A stretch of DNA of 64,000 bases from a virus (lineage: Duplodnaviria; Heunggongvirae; Uroviricota; Caudoviricetes). Every line of letters begins with the position of its first letter. Positions within the stretch are counted from its first letter, which is position 1. A program made the translations under genes and the position numbers. A model generated the notes under the pieces. It saw nothing but the letters and a program-made list of their open reading frames with translations. It made no database searches and was not told where the DNA came from. The stretch lies in IMG/VR virus record IMGVR_UViG_3300043467_001216; one strand, given 5' to 3'. Positions 9,386 through 61,545 of this stretch are shown here, one piece after another.

Positions 9386-10771
9386 ATGAAAATAACATCA
9401 GTTTTAAGGAACATATTATTAGAAGATTCACGATTTGAAAATTTATATACTAAATTTGTTGAACCTGCTCCGTCGAAAGACCCTGCTAAACCAAATAAAC
9501 CTAAACTTAAATTCGATACGTTAAAGCAATTTATATTTGCTGACCCTACGTCAAAGATGCCTGAGGATGTTGATGCTGAAGGTTTATCGTTAGCCGATAT
9601 TAGAAATTTAGGTAATAAGTTTAAAGTAGGTGCTTATACTCAATGGTTGTTGAAAAACTTCTTTAAACCGACTTTCCAAGGAGACCAAGCGAATGTTGAC
9701 CCATCAAGTCCTGAATATAAGGAAATGGTGAAGGAATTCAGACGTTTATTCCTTGAGGATTTGTTTAAGATGAATGATATTATCGGAAAGTTTGAACGTG
9801 TTAAACCATTAATACCGGCAGAACAACGTGATATTAATTCATATACACCGACAACGTTAACAAATTTAATTCTTAATTTACCTGAAGAATTAAAAGCTAA
9901 GATTCAAACTAAGGATGTAAAATCTCAGGCGAGAGAAGAAAGAAAGGCTAACAGATTCGCCCATCCAGGTGCTACAATTATGAAAGAGGGTACTAACTAT
10001 ACTTTAATTAAAATTGAAGGGACTGATACACCTCAGAAAGAGGCGGCACAGTGGTATGGTGGATTCTATGACTATATGAATGGTGAGTCACATTGGTGTA
10101 CTTCACCTCCGGGGTCTAACTACTTTATGACTTACGCATCGGCAGGTCCATTATATGTGATTATGGCTAACGATGATAAAGGACAGGTGGGTGCAAGAAC
10201 AGGACTTCCAACTGAAAGATACCAAATCAACTTCCCTAAAAACCAATTTATGGATAGAATGGACGGTAGATTTGATGTTGTTGAGAAATTCAATGGAGAC
10301 TTCGCTGAGTTTAAAGAAATCCTTAAACCTGAATTTGCAAAAGGATTCGTTATTCCAAATACTGATGAGGTTGAAATTACATATCCTGGAAGTTCTGCGG
10401 GTGTATTCATCGCATTATATGGATTTGATGATTTGATTAAATCATTACCAAAAACTATTAAACAGTTACACGTAAGTAATACTTCAAACACACCTGTTTA
10501 TTTAGATTTAAGTGATGCTATTGGTGAATTCACTGAATTAGATACGATATTATTACATAATGTTGTAAAAGAAATTCCTGAGTCAATCGGTAATCTTAGA
10601 AACTTAGATATATTGTCATTGACTGATAATAAAGAATTGAGAACATTACCAAAATCTATTCTTAATTTAGAAAATCTAACTTTCTTAGTGTTAACAGGTA
10701 GTAATGTTGATTTAGGTGATATGTCAGAGAACTTTTTTGAAACTGCTGACGGAGTTTATGCACTTGCTTAA
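9386..10771 (+). CDS. hypothetical protein with C-terminal leucine-rich repeats
   Basis: LRR-like LxxLxxLxLxxN units in the last ~90 aa. The internal - and + ORFs 10132..10491 and 10173..10436 are judged spurious. Confidence 0.5.
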   Translation: MKITSVLRNILLEDSRFENLYTKFVEPAPSKDPAKPNKPKLKFDTLKQFIFADPTSKMPEDVDAEGLSLADIRNLGNKFKVGAYTQWLLKNFFKPTFQGDQANVDPSSPEYKEMVKEFRRLFLEDLFKMNDIIGKFERVKPLIPAEQRDINSYTPTTLTNLILNLPEELKAKIQTKDVKSQAREERKANRFAHPGATIMKEGTNYTLIKIEGTDTPQKEAAQWYGGFYDYMNGESHWCTSPPGSNYFMTYASAGPLYVIMANDDKGQVGARTGLPTERYQINFPKNQFMDRMDGRFDVVEKFNGDFAEFKEILKPEFAKGFVIPNTDEVEITYPGSSAGVFIALYGFDDLIKSLPKTIKQLHVSNTSNTPVYLDLSDAIGEFTELDTILLHNVVKEIPESIGNLRNLDILSLTDNKELRTLPKSILNLENLTFLVLTGSNVDLGDMSENFFETADGVYALA

Positions 10772-11087: not shown

Positions 11088-11114
11088 AACCCCCAAGACC
11101 TGGGGGTTTTTTAT
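11088..11114 (+). terminator. intrinsic terminator AAACCCCCAAGACCTGGGGGTTTTTTATT
   Basis: GC stem plus a T-run after the stop of the 10787..11083 gene. Confidence 0.8.
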
Positions 11115-14714: not shown

Positions 14715-14745
14715 AACCCCCAATTAAATGGGGGTTTTGTTTTAA
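14715..14745. terminator. bidirectional intrinsic terminator AAAAAACCCCCAATTAAATGGGGGTTTTGTTTT between convergent genes
   Basis: The stem is flanked by an A-run and a T-run. Confidence 0.75.
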
Positions 14746-52676: not shown

Positions 52677-53063
52677 ATGAGTAGAGTTAATTTGATTGCA
52701 TCAACAGGGTTAATCTTCAATGAAGATAAGTCAATGGTATTAGGTGTGTCACGTAAAGACGATAAAACTAAATTTGGTTTACCTGGTGGTAAGGTTGATG
52801 AAGGTGAAACAATGTATGAAGCATTGGTTAGAGAGTTGAAAGAAGAAACAGGATTGGATGTTATTAAGGCGGTCCCGATATATTTCAGAGAAGATGGTAT
52901 ATACGTGACCGTGGTTTATTTGATTAGTGAATATTCAGGTGATATATATACAGAAGAGGCCGGTGTCGTTAAATGGGTTACATTTGAAGAATTGAAACAC
53001 GGGGCGTTCTCAGAATACAATACAATGTTGGAGGAACATTTGAAATTTATAAATTATATATGA
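52677..53063 (+). CDS. Nudix hydrolase
   Basis: Nudix box GLPGGKVDEGETMYEALVRELKEETGL (Gx5Ex7REUxEExGU). Confidence 0.75.
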   Translation: MSRVNLIASTGLIFNEDKSMVLGVSRKDDKTKFGLPGGKVDEGETMYEALVRELKEETGLDVIKAVPIYFREDGIYVTVVYLISEYSGDIYTEEAGVVKWVTFEELKHGAFSEYNTMLEEHLKFINYI

Positions 53064-53818
53064 ATATGAAGAAATTAATTTATTTTACATTAGGTAATAA
53101 TCCAAATTACTTAAAATTGGCTGATATGTGTATTAACAGTTTATATCATAATGGTTATGATGGTGATTTTTTATTTATAACTGACTTAAAGAATGAGATT
53201 TTAAACCAAATCAATTTTAAAACTCAACCTTATTTTTTAGAATTAAAAGAATCTTCATTGTTAGAATCGTCGGCGAATAAACTTAAAGTTTATTCATTTA
53301 ATAAAATAAATGAATATGATAAAATTATATTTTCAGATTTAGATATTTTATGGGTGTCGAACCCTGAAATAATTTTTAATCTTATTGATGAGGATAAATT
53401 TTATATGAGTAATGAAGAAGGGTTAATGACTGATGAATTATGGGGTGGTTTGTTGTTAACTGATACTGAAAAAATTGAAATTGACCAATTGAAAATTTTT
53501 GGGTTAAATTGTGGTCTATTTGCGTTTAATAACAAAATGATACCGTATTTAGAGCAGGTTGATTTATTTTTGAATAATAATTTAGAGTTACAAAATGTGT
53601 GTTTAGAACAACCATTTTTGAATGTTTATGTTTATCGTAATAATTTATATAATAATAAATTGAATGGTTTGGTTAGTCATAAAGGTTATCATTTTGTTAA
53701 TTCACCTTTAGATTTAATCAAATATGATGGTGTTGTTTTACATTTTGCAGGTGGTCCTGGTAATTATGATTTTAAATATGAAAAAATGTTGATTTATTTT
53801 AACGAATATTTTAAATAA
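53060..53818 (+). CDS. putative glycosyltransferase (GT-A fold, DxD)
   Basis: IIFSDLDILW DxD-type motif and GT8-like layout. By eye only. Confidence 0.5.
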   Translation: MNMKKLIYFTLGNNPNYLKLADMCINSLYHNGYDGDFLFITDLKNEILNQINFKTQPYFLELKESSLLESSANKLKVYSFNKINEYDKIIFSDLDILWVSNPEIIFNLIDEDKFYMSNEEGLMTDELWGGLLLTDTEKIEIDQLKIFGLNCGLFAFNNKMIPYLEQVDLFLNNNLELQNVCLEQPFLNVYVYRNNLYNNKLNGLVSHKGYHFVNSPLDLIKYDGVVLHFAGGPGNYDFKYEKMLIYFNEYFK

Positions 53819-53830
53819 ATAACGTGTTAT

Positions 53831-54031
53831 ATGTTGGTTGAGGGGGAATATAATTATGCTAAACTAATTACTATTGAAGGTGATGTTGTCGCGGTTGCGG
53901 TTATGGAAGTAGGTTCAGAGAATGAAGCTGGTGTTGTTAATTGGGCTTTAGATAATGATTTCACCTTAGTTAAGATTGACGAACAAGAGTTTTTGGATTT
54001 TGAAAGTGATTATGATATTGAACTTGAATAA
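53831..54031 (+). CDS. hypothetical acidic protein
   Basis: ORF. Confidence 0.3.
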   Translation: MLVEGEYNYAKLITIEGDVVAVAVMEVGSENEAGVVNWALDNDFTLVKIDEQEFLDFESDYDIELE

Positions 54032-54069
54032 AATTTTCACTCAGGTGTTGTGCATATCCAAAAGATAGT

Positions 54070-54077
54070 TATATTTG
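54070..54077 (+). promoter_or_regulatory. TATATTTG -7-like promoter element driving the ORF-free ncRNA candidate
   Basis: TAnnTTTG followed by an ORF-free 220-nt region and a terminator. Confidence 0.4.
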
Positions 54078-54084
54078 TAGTGTG

Positions 54085-54307
54085 TGAGTGTCACACAGGA
54101 TGTCAGAACTCCTAACTTACAATCTGACCATTAAGTATCAGGTGAGATGATACGGGTTGATTACCCCAACTTAGTAAGTGAAACCATCAGGATGTCAGAA
54201 CTCCTAGTTCACAATCTGACCACTAAGAATCGGGTGAGGCGGTTCGGGTTAAACACCTCAATCCAAAGGATGAAATTTAAACCCCCAAGTACATTGGGGG
54301 TTTTTTG
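54085..54307 (+). ncRNA. candidate structured ncRNA with its own promoter and terminator, containing two tandem ~70-nt homologous units
   Basis: No ORF. A TATATTTG -7 motif sits at 54070-54077. A 5' hairpin GTGTGA-gtg-TCACAC opens the transcript. Units at 54096-54166 and 54188-54258 share AGGATGTCAGAACTCCTA..ACAATCTGACCA.TAAG.ATC.GGTGAG..CGGGTT.A..ACC. Each unit forms GTCAGA/TCTGAC and GGTG/CACC helices. An intrinsic terminator lies at 54279-54307. Confidence 0.5.
54279..54307 (+). terminator. intrinsic terminator AAACCCCCAAGTACATTGGGGGTTTTTTG ending the ncRNA candidate
   Basis: Stem plus a T-run. Confidence 0.8.
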
Positions 54308-54328
54308 TTTTATCTAATATTTATTGAT

Positions 54329-54805
54329 ATGAAAATAATATTAACTGAGAATAAGTTAGATAAAATAATTGAAAAATATGGTATAGTTAAAACCATTAGA
54401 AATATTGGTGGGTATAAAAATTTTGATAAAATATACCCTGATTATTTTTATTCAGGTGATACATCACAATGGGATAGAGAACGTGTTATTAATTTTTTAA
54501 ATGAATGTGTTGAGGTTAATAACAGAATAGAAAATGAATCAAGTATTTATCTTCACGACTATTGGGAAGATATCTTATATCAAAGTTGGAGTGATTATAA
54601 TGAAGATGCTGGTAGAGAGTTTCAGTATGAATCTAGAATAATGTCTATTAGTACTGATTTTGCACATACTGAAGTGTGGCAATATGATGAGGAAGGTGAA
54701 ATGTTTGATGAAGCTTACGATTATAATGATATACCTTTGAATAGATTGGAAACTAGGTTTTTAAGTAAAATATTTGGGCAACTTTGGGGGGTATTTAAAT
54801 TATGA
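54329..54805 (+). CDS. hypothetical protein
   Basis: ORF trimmed to the ATG downstream of the terminator at 54279-54307. Confidence 0.4.
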   Translation: MKIILTENKLDKIIEKYGIVKTIRNIGGYKNFDKIYPDYFYSGDTSQWDRERVINFLNECVEVNNRIENESSIYLHDYWEDILYQSWSDYNEDAGREFQYESRIMSISTDFAHTEVWQYDEEGEMFDEAYDYNDIPLNRLETRFLSKIFGQLWGVFKL

Positions 54806-55278
54806 AGTTATTAAAATTATTATCGACATTAATTACTGAGAGTAGGTTATTTGACAGATTTGTTGTCAACGGTCTTGTTGTTGATGTAACCAGCACTCGT
54901 GAGTCTGATGTTGCGGTAATGGATAATACAACATTCGGTAGAGTTCCCAAAGAAGAAATATTAGAATCAATGAGAGATATCATTGAAGTTATTGTAACAC
55001 AAGGATTGGTGGTATTAGATACTTGTGAAAGAAGATGTGGTTTATTAGTAAGTGATTATTCAATGGGGTTCGATTACCAACTTTGGGTAACATTGAAGAC
55101 TAATAAATTAGAATTGAAAATTAACACATCAATCAAACATCCAAAACAATTATTTAACGATAAACACAAAACAAGACGTGTTATCGTAACTAGAGACGGT
55201 GAGACCGTTATCAGAGAATCATTAGAACATTATCGTTCAGTTAAAATCGGAAAAAAAATCGTTTATTTTATAGACTAA
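54802..55278 (+). CDS. hypothetical protein
   Basis: ORF. Confidence 0.4.
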   Translation: MKLLKLLSTLITESRLFDRFVVNGLVVDVTSTRESDVAVMDNTTFGRVPKEEILESMRDIIEVIVTQGLVVLDTCERRCGLLVSDYSMGFDYQLWVTLKTNKLELKINTSIKHPKQLFNDKHKTRRVIVTRDGETVIRESLEHYRSVKIGKKIVYFID

Positions 55279-55337
55279 ATCGTAAATTATCTATAACTTT
55301 AGTCATAAAAGAAATTTTAGATTAAATACTAACGATT

Positions 55338-55535
55338 ATGAATAAGCATAGAATTAACATTATCAACAAACAGAGTAGTAGGTTGATACATAAGAACCAC
55401 TTAGATAGTTGTTTAGAACATTTATCAATCGCTCACTTTCACTTATCAAAACATCTTAAAGGTAAGAATGATATGGGGTTATTGACTAACATATTGAACT
55501 CATCTTTTGAGATAAAAAAACATTTAAAACGATGA
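55338..55535 (+). CDS. hypothetical protein
   Basis: ORF. Confidence 0.3.
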   Translation: MNKHRINIINKQSSRLIHKNHLDSCLEHLSIAHFHLSKHLKGKNDMGLLTNILNSSFEIKKHLKR

Positions 55536-55958: not shown

Positions 55959-56478
55959 TATATTGGTTAAACAATTTTCCTTGTCGGATGAGTTTAAAGA
56001 TTACATTCAAGATAATATTAATAATTCAGGTTGTTCTAACATTGAATTTTTAGAATTTAATAATGGTTTGTTTGGTGTTTCATTACACGATGGTATAATA
56101 CTAAATGATACGTTGTTAAAATATCCATTATCGTTATGTATTTTCATAATACTACACGAATTAACACACCAATTACAATTTAATAAATATGGTGTTGACA
56201 AGATGTATCTTTATTTAAATGATGTGAGTGATGATGAGGTTAGTGAATTCATTTTAAAACAAGAAATCGTTGCTGATAGATTGGCATCACTGAAAATACG
56301 TCAATTACAAAAGAAAGGTTTAATTAGTAAAGATTTTACACCAATACAGATTCATAAAAAGGTCGACCCAAAACTCTTTAAACAAAAGATTGTAAATTAT
56401 AGAAACCTGATGAGAGAACAAAACGTTAGAACACCTGACGATGTTAGTTGTTTTTTTAAATCATTAATATTATATTAG
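55942..56478 (+). CDS. putative HEXXH zinc metallopeptidase-like protein
   Basis: IILHELTHQLQ (HExxH). Confidence 0.45.
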   Translation: MDKVSDILVKQFSLSDEFKDYIQDNINNSGCSNIEFLEFNNGLFGVSLHDGIILNDTLLKYPLSLCIFIILHELTHQLQFNKYGVDKMYLYLNDVSDDEVSEFILKQEIVADRLASLKIRQLQKKGLISKDFTPIQIHKKVDPKLFKQKIVNYRNLMREQNVRTPDDVSCFFKSLILY

Positions 56479-56482
56479 TAAA

Positions 56483-57196
56483 ATGAAAAAGAAAATTGTT
56501 GTATTCACAGGTGCTGGTGTTTCAAGAGAAAGTGGTGTCTTGACATTTAGAGATAGTGTGGATGGGTTATGGGAGAATCATAGTATTGATGATGTTTGTA
56601 CACCTTCAGGATGGAAAAAAGACCGTGAGAAGGTTTTGAATTTTTATAACGATAGACGAAGACAATTACCTACGGTTGAACCTAACTCAGCCCACACAGG
56701 TTTGGTTAAGTTAGAGGACAAATATGACGTAACAATCGTTACCCAAAATGTTGATGACCTACACGAAAGAGCGGGTTCATCTAAGATATTACATTTACAC
56801 GGTGAGTTGACTAAAGCCAGAGGTGCGATGTATAGTCATAAGACAAGTCCATTGGATAATATCGTGGTGATTGGTTATAATGATATTAACATTGGTGATA
56901 AGTGTGAGATAACAGGTTCACAGTTGAGACCCCACATTGTTTGGTTTGAAGAGATGCCATTCAACGTCGAGGAAAGTTATGACGCAATAACCGAATCTGA
57001 TGTGTTAATCATTATCGGAACTAGTTTGATGATTGGTTACACATTAAATCTATTATCAAGTGTTAGTGATGAGTGTAAGATTTATTATATTGACCCCCAA
57101 CCAAGTAGGTATTTGGACCATTTAGGTAAAGATATTACTTACATTGAGAAACCGGCAACGGAAGGTGTTGAATTAATTTTAAATGAATTGTTATGA
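56483..57196 (+). CDS. Sir2-family (sirtuin-like) NAD-dependent protein
   Basis: VVFTGAGVSRESGVLTFRD, QNVDDLHERAG and HLHG Sir2 blocks. No obvious Zn-ribbon Cys tetrad. Confidence 0.75.
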   Translation: MKKKIVVFTGAGVSRESGVLTFRDSVDGLWENHSIDDVCTPSGWKKDREKVLNFYNDRRRQLPTVEPNSAHTGLVKLEDKYDVTIVTQNVDDLHERAGSSKILHLHGELTKARGAMYSHKTSPLDNIVVIGYNDINIGDKCEITGSQLRPHIVWFEEMPFNVEESYDAITESDVLIIIGTSLMIGYTLNLLSSVSDECKIYYIDPQPSRYLDHLGKDITYIEKPATEGVELILNELL

Positions 57197-60271: not shown

Positions 60272-60371
60272 TAGTCAGGTGGCGTAATGGTAAAAGCGTT
60301 GGTCAGTGGGTTTAAACACCTAACGGTAAAAATGGGTACCAGATATACAGGTTCGAATCCTGTCCTGACTA
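60272..60371 (+). tRNA. tRNA-like element 1 (Leu-type D-arm; shared termini AGTCAGGTGGCG ... ACAGGTTCGAATCCTGTCCTGACT); 100 nt
   Basis: Acceptor AGTCAGG/CCTGACT (7 bp). T-arm ACAGG-TTCGAAT-CCTGT. D-arm GCG-TAATGGTAAAAG-CGT. The interior is longer than a class II tRNA. Confidence 0.45.
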
Positions 60372-60441
60372 CTGACAATAAAACTTTGGGGTCAGGGTTT
60401 TGTTGGCACTGAAAGGTGTGTGTTTTCAACGGTTCGAGTCC

Positions 60442-60553
60442 GAGTCAGGTGGCGGAATTGGTAGACGCTAACGGTGGTAAGTGTGATAGTCAGAGCTCGG
60501 GAACTCCTATCAAAAAGTTTGGTTCACACATACAGGTTCAAGTCCTGTCCTGA
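60442..60553 (+). tRNA. tRNA-like element 2 (D-arm GGTGGCGGAATTGGTAGACGC identical to canonical tRNA-Leu); 112 nt
   Basis: Same termini as element 1. The 63-nt region between the D- and T-arms includes a long hairpin GTGTGA...TCACAC. No canonical anticodon arm found by eye. Confidence 0.45.
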
Positions 60554-60569
60554 CTACTAAAAATAAGAT

Positions 60570-60800
60570 ATGAATAATAGAGAACAAAAATTGATTGATT
60601 TAATGTTTGAAATGGTGTTAGTGACAACAAACGACCCCGTATTTTGTAAAAGACCAAGAGGTGAAAGAATGGCTTGGGTTGCAGATAATTTGAGGGGTTC
60701 GGGATTTGATACACATCCAATCGGAATGAGTTGGGGGGTTTTGGTTGACTCTTCATTCAGGGACACAATTGATGTTAAAACAGAAAATTTAGATAATTAA
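60570..60800 (+). CDS. small hypothetical protein embedded in the tRNA-like island
   Basis: 76-aa ORF between tRNA-like elements 2 and 3. The antisense ORFs 60538..60766 are judged spurious. Confidence 0.25.
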   Translation: MNNREQKLIDLMFEMVLVTTNDPVFCKRPRGERMAWVADNLRGSGFDTHPIGMSWGVLVDSSFRDTIDVKTENLDN

Positions 60801-60805
60801 CTAAC

Positions 60806-60949
60806 AGTCAGGTGGTGGAATGGTAGACGTGTAATGGGTGATTTGATTAATGGGGCCGTGAGACATCACATTAAATATGTTGACCATCCCCAAGAACCGA
60901 ATAAAATCGGTCTTTTCAAATCGTACAGGTTCGAATCCTGTCCTGACTG
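60806..60949 (+). tRNA. tRNA-like element 3; 144 nt, with internal direct repeat TAATGGG
   Basis: Same termini (AGTCAGGTGGTGGAATGGTAGACG ... ACAGGTTCGAATCCTGTCCTGACT). Very long interior. Confidence 0.4.
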
Positions 60950-61119
60950 CTGAATTAGCCCTCTGGTGGTGCACCGCTAAGGAACGAAGATAGAGATTAC
61001 AGATATGGGTTGAAATAAAAAGACCTTCGGGTTTACACATATGTTGGCGTGGACGCTCTCCGAATCGTATGTCGGCATAGTTTGTGTGTTCTAGGGATAA
61101 TTTAAAAACACACATTTTT

Positions 61120-61232
61120 AGTCAGGTGGCGGAAGGGATTGAGGTAACTCGGTCGTTGGTAGACGCACATATCCATACAGGGATGATGCAGTACTGTATT
61201 ACTGTGTCTTACAAGTTCGAATCTTGTCCTGA
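61120..61232 (+). tRNA. tRNA-like element 4; 113 nt, with a ~22-nt insertion inside the D-loop
   Basis: GGTGGCGGAA-[GGGATTGAGGTAACTCGGTCG]-TTGGTAGACGC. T-arm ACAAG-TTCGAAT-CTTGT, where compensatory changes keep the stem paired. Acceptor AGTCAGG/CCTGACT. Confidence 0.4.
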
Positions 61233-61296
61233 CTACAAAAAATAACGAAGGTATTGTTTAATTAAATAAAAAAACATATCTTTGAAATGTTAATAT

Positions 61297-61412
61297 AGAT
61301 AGGTGGCGGATGGGTAGACGCAGAGGTGAGGGGATATAGTAACACTCTGAAAGTAGCAGTCTCGTTACGTCCTACGGTGAAATCGAACAGGTTCGAATCC
61401 TGTCCTATCTAC
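61297..61412 (+). tRNA. tRNA-like element 5; 116 nt, acceptor AGATAGG/CCTATCT
   Basis: D-arm GCG-GATGGGTAGA-CGC. T-arm ACAGG-TTCGAAT-CCTGT. Acceptor changed at two base pairs with full compensation. Confidence 0.45.
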
Positions 61413-61460: not shown

Positions 61461-61530
61461 AAGCGGAGTAGTGTAATTGGTAACATATTGGATTGTCTCC
61501 TTTGATGTGGGTTCGAGTCCCATCGCCGCA
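61461..61530 (+). tRNA. candidate tRNA (T-arm GTGGGTTCGAGTCCCAT, D-loop AATTGGTAAC)
   Basis: tRNA-like D- and T-loops. The acceptor pairing is imperfect by eye and the isotype is undetermined. Confidence 0.35.
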
Positions 61531-61545
61531 ACTAAAATTTAAATT

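Follow-up and report, generated by a model that had tools for sequence, protein, structure and literature searches.

A structured RNA with predicted pseudoknots upstream of a possible endoribonuclease gene in uncultured phages

Between a 66-aa open reading frame (ORF; 53831-54031) and a 158-aa ORF beginning at position 54329, the IMG/VR virus record IMGVR_UViG_3300043467_001216, assigned to the Caudoviricetes, contains a gap (54032-54328) for which an original prediction, made from the letters of the DNA, proposed a dedicated small RNA gene rather than an untranslated region (UTR); the question is what this gap encodes and how its product might act. In the following, the window is the whole 64,000-nt stretch of DNA that was analyzed, and numbered loci (L001, L184 and others) are homologous loci on other contigs. 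Positions 54082-54309 were shown to be a single non-coding transcription unit, in which a promoter and a 5' hairpin precede a tandem pair of 92-nt RNA copies and a terminator follows them; the earlier observation of a structured RNA is largely real, and its interpretation is partly supported. The elements that delimit the unit are the following.

54047-54077, plus strand: promoter-like element of the Bacteroidota sigma-A type, with -33 TTG at 54047-54049, a 20-nt spacer and the -7 element TATATTTG at 54070-54077
54082-54096, plus strand: 5'-terminal hairpin P0, GUGUGA-GUG-UCACAC, seen in the sequence and in the minimum free energy (MFE) fold and beginning at about the expected transcription start
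54279-54309, plus strand: intrinsic terminator (hairpin 54279-54303 and T-run), AAACCCCCAA-GUACA-UUGGGGGUUU followed by UUUGUUUU

The promoter motif at 54070, the 5' hairpin and the terminator, the last placed at 54279-54307, had already been noticed and were all found again. A consensus for Bacteroidota sigma-A promoters has reportedly been established; TTTG-N18-19-TAnnTTTG is present at an equal distance 5' of the RNA in L182, L184, L187, L189 and L131, and L003 carries TTG-N19-TAAATTTG. Over the window TAnnTTTG by itself is mildly enriched (116 sites vs 102 +/- 8.5 expected), and the exact -33/-7 pattern is not enriched (1 site vs 0.75 expected). Hairpins of different sequence occupy the P0 position in other promoter-proximal copies, as GUGAU/AUCAC in L184, GUGU/ACAC in L182 and UGUUG..UGUG/CACA..CAACA in L003. 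The terminator stem has 10 bp, five of them G-C, and is the sole terminator-like site within 53000-55500; almost every homologous locus likewise has a terminator after its last unit. As for the host, Bacteroidota are inferred from the promoter type, from the A-rich positions -14 to -10 upstream of the window ORFs and from the lack of Shine-Dalgarno (SD) use in the window, where SD-like motifs precede 7 of the 79 ORFs against a background of 10.7%.

The two homologous units reported in the original prediction are direct repeats of 74 nt (54096-54169 and 54188-54261), 81% identical and spaced by 92 nt; the 19-mer CAGGATGTCAGAACTCCTA, which starts each of them, occurs exactly twice against 0.02 expected. 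The full unit is longer than the approximately 70 nt first assigned to it: it measures about 92 nt, the same as the repeat spacing, since a further, fourth hairpin and the conserved tail GAAAYAAUC belong to it, with both copies spanning 54097-54280. In the 5' to 3' direction each unit contains (A)GGAUG, the helix P1, GUCAG(A)/(U)CUGAC, around a 15-17-nt loop beginning with ACUCCUA, the linker CCrYYAAG, the helix P2 of 6 bp with the loop GGUG(A/U)Gn, the helix P3, GGGU/ACCY, then CAA, the helix P4 of 4 bp with a triloop, and GAAAYAAUC; two pseudoknots, PK1 and PK2, are predicted in addition.

54097-54189, plus strand: RNA unit A (R1 covariance-model match, 109.5 bits; helix counts on 29 homologues)
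54097-54100 with 54110-54113, plus strand: unit A PK1 (AGGA with UCCU)
54102-54107 with 54123-54128, plus strand: unit A P1
54135-54140 with 54148-54153, plus strand: unit A P2, loop GGUGAGA
54154-54157 with 54163-54166, plus strand: unit A P3
54169-54172 with 54176-54179, plus strand: unit A P4
54180-54183, plus strand: unit A GAAA
54158-54161 with 54186-54189, plus strand: unit A PK2 (UGAU with AUCA)
54189-54280, plus strand: RNA unit B, direct repeat of unit A, 81% identical
54189-54192 with 54202-54205, plus strand: unit B PK1
54194-54199 with 54215-54220, plus strand: unit B P1
54227-54232 with 54240-54245, plus strand: unit B P2, loop GGUGAGG
54246-54249 with 54255-54258, plus strand: unit B P3
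54261-54264 with 54268-54271, plus strand: unit B P4
54272-54275, plus strand: unit B GAAA
54250-54253 with 54276-54279, plus strand: unit B PK2 (UAAA with UUUA)

The thermodynamic MFE fold of the whole region is no better than that of shuffled sequences (z = -1.18), and the structure was therefore judged by comparison with relatives. In 29 distinct units, 95.7% of the cells are paired and changes on both sides occur at nine pairs; the covariation score was reached by none of 500 shuffles, and sliding the partners by 1-3 columns leaves 27-44% paired. Double changes affect five of the six pairs of P2 and three of the four of P4, and the closing pair of P3 is found as G-C, G-U or A-U; P1, P2 and P3 were independently recovered by RNAalifold. 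The two copies in the window also differ from each other with pairing kept: from unit A to unit B, P2 passes from GUAUCA/UGAUAC to GAAUCG/CGGUUC, P4 from ACUU/AAGU to AUCC/GGAU and PK2 from UGAU/AUCA to UUAAA/UUUAA. PK2 joins the P3 loop with the 3' tail that follows P4, and the complementarity of loop and tail is above that of all 2000 re-pairings (0 of 2000 shuffles). Its common form is UGAUU/AAUCA; besides that of unit B, variants are UAAUC/GAUUG (L151), UAUG/CAUA (L160) and UAAUU/AAUUA (L164B, L139 and L174), and in a divergent lineage it becomes AGAUAG/CUAUCU, with 6 bp, in L184 and AGAUAG/CUAUUU in L189. Covariation in related phages, a check set beforehand, is thus present and supports P2, P3, P4 and PK2 at the level of sequence comparison, the 3' domain being composed of three covarying hairpins, P2 with its GGUGAG loop, P3 and P4, and of a closing second pseudoknot. 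Two pairings first thought to compensate each other, ACTTA/TAAGT in unit A and TAGT/ACTA in unit B, lie in different registers in the two units, are 67.6% paired in the 29 homologues and do not covary beyond shuffles; a GGTG...CACC helix had also been drawn, which shows no covariation and competes with the covarying local P3 hairpin. Both proposals were rejected.

The GTCAGA...TCTGAC helix of the first reading corresponds to P1 and is found in both units as GTCAG(A)/(T)CTGAC. P1 and PK1 are invariant in the first set of homologues, partly since the search patterns imposed them. In divergent relatives PK1 is found as GGGA/UCCC (L182, L189) and GGGA/UCCU (L191), and P1 as GUUAGC/GCUAAC in L184, where a C-G pair is changed to U-A; the sixth pair of P1 also passes from A-U to C-G. 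These changes lend support to P1 and PK1. Because MAFFT and covariance-model alignments shift the GGGAAUG of the divergent lineage by one column, the pairs of both helices were counted after anchoring the sequences by hand; the outer pair of PK1 is A-U in 27 cases, G.U in three, G-C in two and mismatched in one. A 5' pseudoknot PK1 (AGGA:UCCU), resting on few covariation events, is plausible, and the near-invariant 5' domain, with GGAUG, P1 GUCAG/CUGAC and the ACUCCUA loop, probably forms an H-type pseudoknot through it. RNAalifold proposes an alternative in which the 5' GG pairs with the YY that follows P1, G-U or G-C in 29 of 29 units; this pairing would compete with PK1.

The gap had been described as free of ORFs, which is true only in part: ORFs of 20-56 aa overlap the RNA region and, as 1-nt indels and substitutions alter their length and sequence among homologues, they are not conserved. 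A peptide-coding role for the repeats, with MSELLTYNLTIKYQVR as one product and an extended form of it from unit B, is scarcely credible: a near-invariant ATG (GGATG) does stand at the start of the unit, and ORFs of 20 and 56 aa are present in the window, but the seven codon differences between A and B give five amino-acid changes, one change from stop to sense and one synonymous change, and the frames of the homologues end after 5-16 codons at differing places (MSVTPTQ* in L053, MSALPLES* in L189, (TTG)SESY* in L170), the variation keeping base pairs instead.

Promoter, 5' hairpin and terminator form an architecture typical of small RNAs (sRNAs), and conserved loop sequences, such as the ACUCCUA of P1 or the GGUGAG of P2, would be available as single-stranded seeds for pairing with phage or host mRNAs. 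A base-pairing sRNA is nevertheless improbable: the conserved CUCCU is predicted to be engaged in PK1, a seed of anti-SD type would meet few targets among the window ORFs, given the 7 of 79 against 10.7% background reported above, and four helices with two pseudoknots exceed what a seed and a terminator need. A sponge for CsrA, of the CsrB or RsmZ type, corresponding to the protein-sponge role also suggested at first, was considered and appears unlikely. Sponges of this type expose many GGA motifs in hairpin loops, and each unit here has a single GGA, predicted to be paired in PK1. The reading was rejected on two grounds: homologues carry AUAGAUG or ACGAUG in place of the third AGGATG (54267), so that this motif is not conserved, and the host probably belongs to the Bacteroidota.

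Scans of IMG/VR and of JGI/ENA metagenomes, with exact as well as degenerate patterns, found about 59 distinct units across about 70 viral and metagenomic contigs, single copies being commoner than tandem ones among the loci. The scan of IMG/VR with a 17-mer gave eight true loci, some with a single unit and terminator and others with a tandem pair; the metagenome scan gave 43, mostly from what the record names indicate to be freshwater-lake assemblies. A 3'-half pattern with the 5' half left free added a GGUUG...AAUCCUA lineage and a UCCUCCUA lineage, a looser viral pattern added one new true locus, L053, among the matches listed, and loci reached through protein Y, described below, added a much more divergent RNA lineage. 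No match to the RNA unit was found by two pattern scans in 185,579 bacterial and archaeal species (one genome each); as far as the search patterns can see, the RNA appears confined to uncultured freshwater phage contigs.

The RNA does not correspond to a known family: the comparison with Rfam by Infernal, also foreseen at the outset, gave for Rfam 15 at gathering thresholds only three tRNA matches in the whole window, all outside the RNA region; at E <= 10 the best matches within 53950-54400 were driven by the terminator, with 21 bits against thresholds of 47-65, and 17 homologous loci gave tRNA matches only. Among 50,697 phage records blastn found nothing similar to the region, and nucleotide searches with the surrounding 8 kb found only weak matches to huge uncultured phages and to Vibrio and Aeromonas phages. 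A tRNA or tmRNA was considered and set aside, with nothing called by ARAGORN at the RNA, either here or at 53 homologous loci, no acceptor pairing and no conserved T-loop in the P3 loop. The sole nucleotide similarity to deposited phages concerns 56470-56948, about 480 nt and approximately 70% identical to LR745206 and LR756502; these are uncultured "huge phage" genomes of 630-640 kb, and they encode a DnaJ like the one that adjoins the RNA in other loci. The DnaJ neighbour is uninformative on the host, and no cultured relative was found in these searches.

Two further readings touch on this distribution. As a trans-acting decoy against a host factor, an anti-defence or takeover RNA independent of protein Y, the RNA would mimic a host RNA with its 5' pseudoknot and trap a nuclease, a defence sensor or a translation factor; its restriction to phages in the two species scans, a host-type promoter that suggests early expression, the extremely conserved 5' domain with its SD-like AGGA and anti-SD-like CUCCU, and its persistence where Y is absent would agree with this. 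The decoy reading is rather unlikely: the same two scans show no similar host RNA and Rfam offers no match, the neighbouring genes have no PADLOC match and give no tie to a known defence or anti-defence gene, and the argument is inferential throughout. A self-cleaving ribozyme or a processing signal, cutting multi-unit transcripts at a boundary such as ...AAUC|AGGAUG, would be consistent with a complex fold that contains pseudoknots and an invariant core, with tandem occurrence, and with the tRNA-like neighbours and fused RNA modules described below; it is very improbable, since no Rfam ribozyme matched even at E <= 10 and the majority of loci have one copy only, which leaves no units to separate. 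The helix order, moreover, is one that we take to be unlike that of HDV-like, hammerhead, twister, pistol and hatchet ribozymes, which counts against a ribozyme.

The genes that follow the terminator offer another way to approach the function of the RNA.

54329-54805, plus strand: gene X, 158 aa, first gene 3' of the terminator, member of an acidic multi-copy phage family
54802-55278, plus strand: gene Y, 158 aa, with its start overlapping the X stop; usually directly 3' of the RNA terminator

The X family is recognized by the signature MKxLIxxILKEE...GGY..F.K..PDYF and its members often adjoin the RNA: X sits either just 3' of it or stops 2 nt 5' of it (L001, L135, L154, L156, L158 and L172). 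The Y family has invariant E13, R47 and D85 and near-invariant T109, S110, H113 and P114. Neither protein has a Pfam, PHROG or PADLOC match. By clustering of neighbour ORFs, Y lies directly 3' of the RNA terminator in at least 22 loci, with the recurrent order Dam methylase (minus strand), promoter-RNA-terminator (plus), Y (plus), a 53-aa protein and DnaJ (minus); in the window X lies between terminator and Y, and in many relatives Y comes first. A profile search found 116 relatives of Y, none with a Pfam domain. Seven relatives were looked up, most of them 25-31% identical to the Y of the window and the most divergent of those examined included, the DNA of one being unread; the RNA is found 5' of Y in seven of the seven Y places with readable upstream DNA, twice as a tandem pair or in divergent form.

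AlphaFold models Y with good confidence (pLDDT 84, pTM 0.77), and the fold matches of the model are mostly the RNases RelE, ParE, HigB, YoeB, BrnT, CdiA-CT and RegB, with weak similarity; Foldseek against BFVD lists a RegB homologue among the matches (E 0.054, probability 0.94). Foldseek of Y against the Protein Data Bank (PDB) returned nothing, its profile against PDB sequences nothing relevant, and hhalign against T4 RegB nothing (probability 0.1). The model thus provides a lead, that Y may be a RelE/RegB-like endoribonuclease. As a separate observation, X, Y and an unclassified protein encoded after the RNA of L131 (MKILNSLKTIILESR...) have a similar N-terminal helix motif, MKxLxxxLKxLIxE(E/S), and up to three copies of X are found within 3 kb, the comparison covering the window and the neighbours of the RNA in L001, L004 and L131; these proteins may be part of a wider superfamily whose phage paralogues gather near the RNA.

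The explanation that we favour, tentatively and with rather less than even confidence, is that of a stable RNA that binds a protein, most likely Y, with the terminator giving an excess of RNA. The protein would recognize the invariant 5' domain and the loops; Y, encoded just behind the terminator and possibly an endoribonuclease of RelE/RegB-like fold, would be the likeliest partner, which the RNA might sequester or regulate, or by which it might be processed. The strong terminator would let only a fraction of the transcripts pass into X-Y, thereby keeping the RNA in excess over the protein; having two copies in tandem would just mean twice as much RNA from each transcript.

Several points weigh against this explanation. 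The partnership of RNA and Y is conjectured from gene order and fold likeness. The RNA and its terminator also occur without Y at that place, in L003, L007, L130, L160 and the L001 group: in the first four a small Cys-rich membrane protein and DnaJ follow, and in the L001 group the RNA lies 3' of an X gene; as RNA and terminator are kept without a local Y, Y is not required in cis. Finally, single copies outnumber tandem ones, the 92-nt unit is far above the size of type III antitoxin repeats, and the placement of the RNA in a 5' leader, ahead of a terminator, is just as consistent with regulation in cis.

This last possibility is the main rival to a stable RNA, and we regard it as possible, if doubtful: the RNA would be a cis-acting leader, a riboswitch or a protein-responsive attenuator, that sets terminator read-through into X-Y, Y or the 53-aa gene, its aptamer sensing a metabolite or, in an autoregulatory loop, Y itself, and its tandem copies sharpening the response as in tandem riboswitches. 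The layout is conserved and places the RNA between promoter and terminator, directly 5' of a conserved gene; RNA and terminator precede the start of X-Y in the window, and of Y elsewhere, by 12-25 nt, the Y start codon following the terminator U-run at this distance with no clear promoter of its own noticed. Invariant junction and loop nucleotides combined with covarying stems and pseudoknots are typical of aptamers, and the competition between PK1 and the alternative 5' GG:YY pairing could act as a switch. Of the original claim of a small RNA gene that is not a UTR, one part stands, namely a non-coding RNA that is structured and conserved and has a promoter-like element, a hairpin and a terminator of its own; the exclusion of a UTR is doubtful, as the RNA could equally be a leader of the X-Y (or Y) operon.

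Several findings tell against the leader. No mutually exclusive terminator/antiterminator pairing specific to the RNA was found, and the 3' strand of PK2 stays 4-5 nt away from the terminator in L184 and L189. In tandem pairs no terminator follows unit A, and the 3' gene varies between loci; units are also found 2 nt after X stops, before tRNA-like genes and before unrelated RNA modules. An antiterminator, formed by the 5' strand of P3 with the 5' arm of the terminator or by the P1 loop with its 3' arm, was considered and set aside. Eleven of the 16 terminators detected in the window have the C-rich arm first (CCCCC...GGGGG type), which makes this type the norm of the genome; a C-rich 5' arm able to pair with GGGUU, and the complementarity of GGGUU and CUCC to the terminator arms in general, are therefore generic.

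The non-leader contexts are of several kinds. In L168 (9435-9628) and L151 (1108-1226) a tRNA-like gene lies 5-6 nt 3' of the RNA unit, which suggests that the two are co-transcribed and that the 3' end is made by tRNA-type processing. In L126 (about 1853-1930), as also in L159, L142 and L163, a conserved hairpin-rich non-coding module, made of a GUUGAG...CUCAAC hairpin and a long terminator hairpin, replaces the second unit before the terminator, and in L131 and L138 a structured module of about 120 nt is found between unit and terminator; the RNA seems to be one module of mosaic non-coding transcripts. The conserved promoter and 5' hairpin, the varied 3' genes and the X-adjacent, tRNA-adjacent and fused contexts argue for an autonomous RNA.

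Returning to the stable RNA with Y as its partner, the closest known systems are the type III toxin-antitoxin (TA) modules ToxIN, CptIN and TenpIN, in which, likewise, a constitutive promoter, a repeated pseudoknot RNA and an intrinsic terminator are followed by the gene of a 160-170-aa (approximate size) protein, here possibly an endoribonuclease. Conversely, the repeats of the present RNA are 92 nt long and occur in one or two copies, against arrays of 34-45-nt repeats, and Y is no relative of ToxN, AbiQ, CptN or TenpN: ToxN has a Kid/MazF-like fold, and Y, with no match in Pfam or PADLOC, has a fold weakly like that of RelE, ParE and RegB. The present module is also found in virulent-looking phage genomes and not in bacterial chromosomes or plasmids, X lies between terminator and Y in the window, and some phages carry the RNA without Y. 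In type III modules the terminator between repeats and toxin gene sets the RNA-to-protein ratio (PMC3401426), and a promoter before the repeats and a terminator before the protein gene are likewise found here. By analogy, the RNA-Y locus may work like a type III TA module; we do not say that it is one, because it departs from the type in toxin family and in repeat size and number.

Compact riboswitch aptamers (preQ1-I, SAM-II, ZTP and the glycine tandem aptamers) offer the corresponding comparison for a leader: they resemble the present RNA in a compact pseudoknot of the H-type, predicted here for the 5' domain, whose third loop is rich in A, in invariant loops and junctions, in the position as a 5' leader with an intrinsic terminator and in tandem occurrence. 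The differences are that the present RNA has no Rfam riboswitch match, no overlap of aptamer and terminator that could be found, non-leader contexts and 3' genes that give no hint of a ligand.

With two pseudoknots and a near-invariant core, the complexity of the RNA is of riboswitch or ribozyme grade, and gene order ties it to a possible RNase. To our knowledge, few structured RNAs of phages have known roles, and none has been characterized for phages of Bacteroidota. It is conceivable, though we would call it unlikely, that RNA and Y represent a new RNA-protein pair of virulent phages, either a type-III-like toxin-antitoxin or an RNA-gated nuclease for host shutoff, or else a new riboswitch class controlling a nuclease. 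Were the pair real, a 92-nt double-pseudoknot RNA would restrain or direct an endoribonuclease of RelE/RegB fold, a new RNA fold together with a new toxin fold; cooperation of the two would carry the logic of type III TA modules over to viruses, with RNA and protein folds that are both new, and a leader would add a new aptamer to the regulatory RNAs of phages. In either case, the defined RNA of about 95 nt is a candidate for a new Rfam family. The orphan RNA candidates that Fremin, Bhatt and Kyrpides 2023 (PMC10690425) drew from intergenic regions of phages and viruses are similar in coming from IMG/VR contigs and in showing covariation without function; the present family may be one of these 10,006 unnamed candidates, and the abstract and section headings of that paper contain no description of the fold or of the link with Y. 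More generally, no description of the RNA fold, of its two supported pseudoknots or of the linkage with Y was found in Rfam 15 or in the limited set of literature examined.

Another phage precedent is given by T4 rnaC and rnaD (species 1 and 2), stable structured RNAs of about 120-140 nt that are tandem and, by annotation, adjoin tRNA genes. They differ in that the present RNA lies mostly 5' of Y and not in a tRNA region, and no sequence similarity was noticed, a dedicated search not having been made. The window itself contains, about 6 kb 3' of the RNA (60273-61411), five tRNA-like elements; a similar one is the tRNA-like gene of L168.

60273-60371: first tRNA-like element
60443-60556: second tRNA-like element
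60806-60949: third tRNA-like element
61120-61235: fourth tRNA-like element
61297-61411: fifth tRNA-like element
9531-9628 of L168: tRNA-like element next to the RNA unit

Their common acceptor stem is AGUCAGG...CCUGACU, with a compensatory change in the fifth (AGAUAGG...CCUAUCU), and the D-arm, UGGCGGAAUUGGUAGACGC, which resembles that of tRNA-Leu, and the T-arm, CAGGUUCGAAUCCUG, are common to them as well; long unrelated inserts replace the normal anticodon arm, and the fourth also has an insert in the D-loop. The Rfam tRNA model scores three of the five, two of these three carrying inserts (33 nt and 53 nt), and ARAGORN calls none of them, its only report being a normal tRNA-Thr (61462-61532). 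For the fifth element a promoter box of its own, TATCTTTG, is present at 61277. These elements look like tRNA scaffolds bearing other RNA modules.

Among the genes around the RNA locus, the Dam-RNA-Y block of the relatives L187 and L191 is adjoined, 5' of Dam, by a gene for a 649-aa leucine-rich-repeat protein; in the window 9386-10771 encodes a leucine-rich-repeat protein with a weak LRR_14 match. In one lineage (L184/L185, 1890-2696) a LAGLIDADG-like ORF with a faint Pfam match lies between Dam and the RNA promoter, which indicates homing-endonuclease traffic at the RNA locus. Elsewhere in the window, CCCCCA...TGGGGG hairpins flanked by A- and T-runs are found at 11090-11112 and 14717-14740; since they score as terminators on both strands, they are likely bidirectional terminators.

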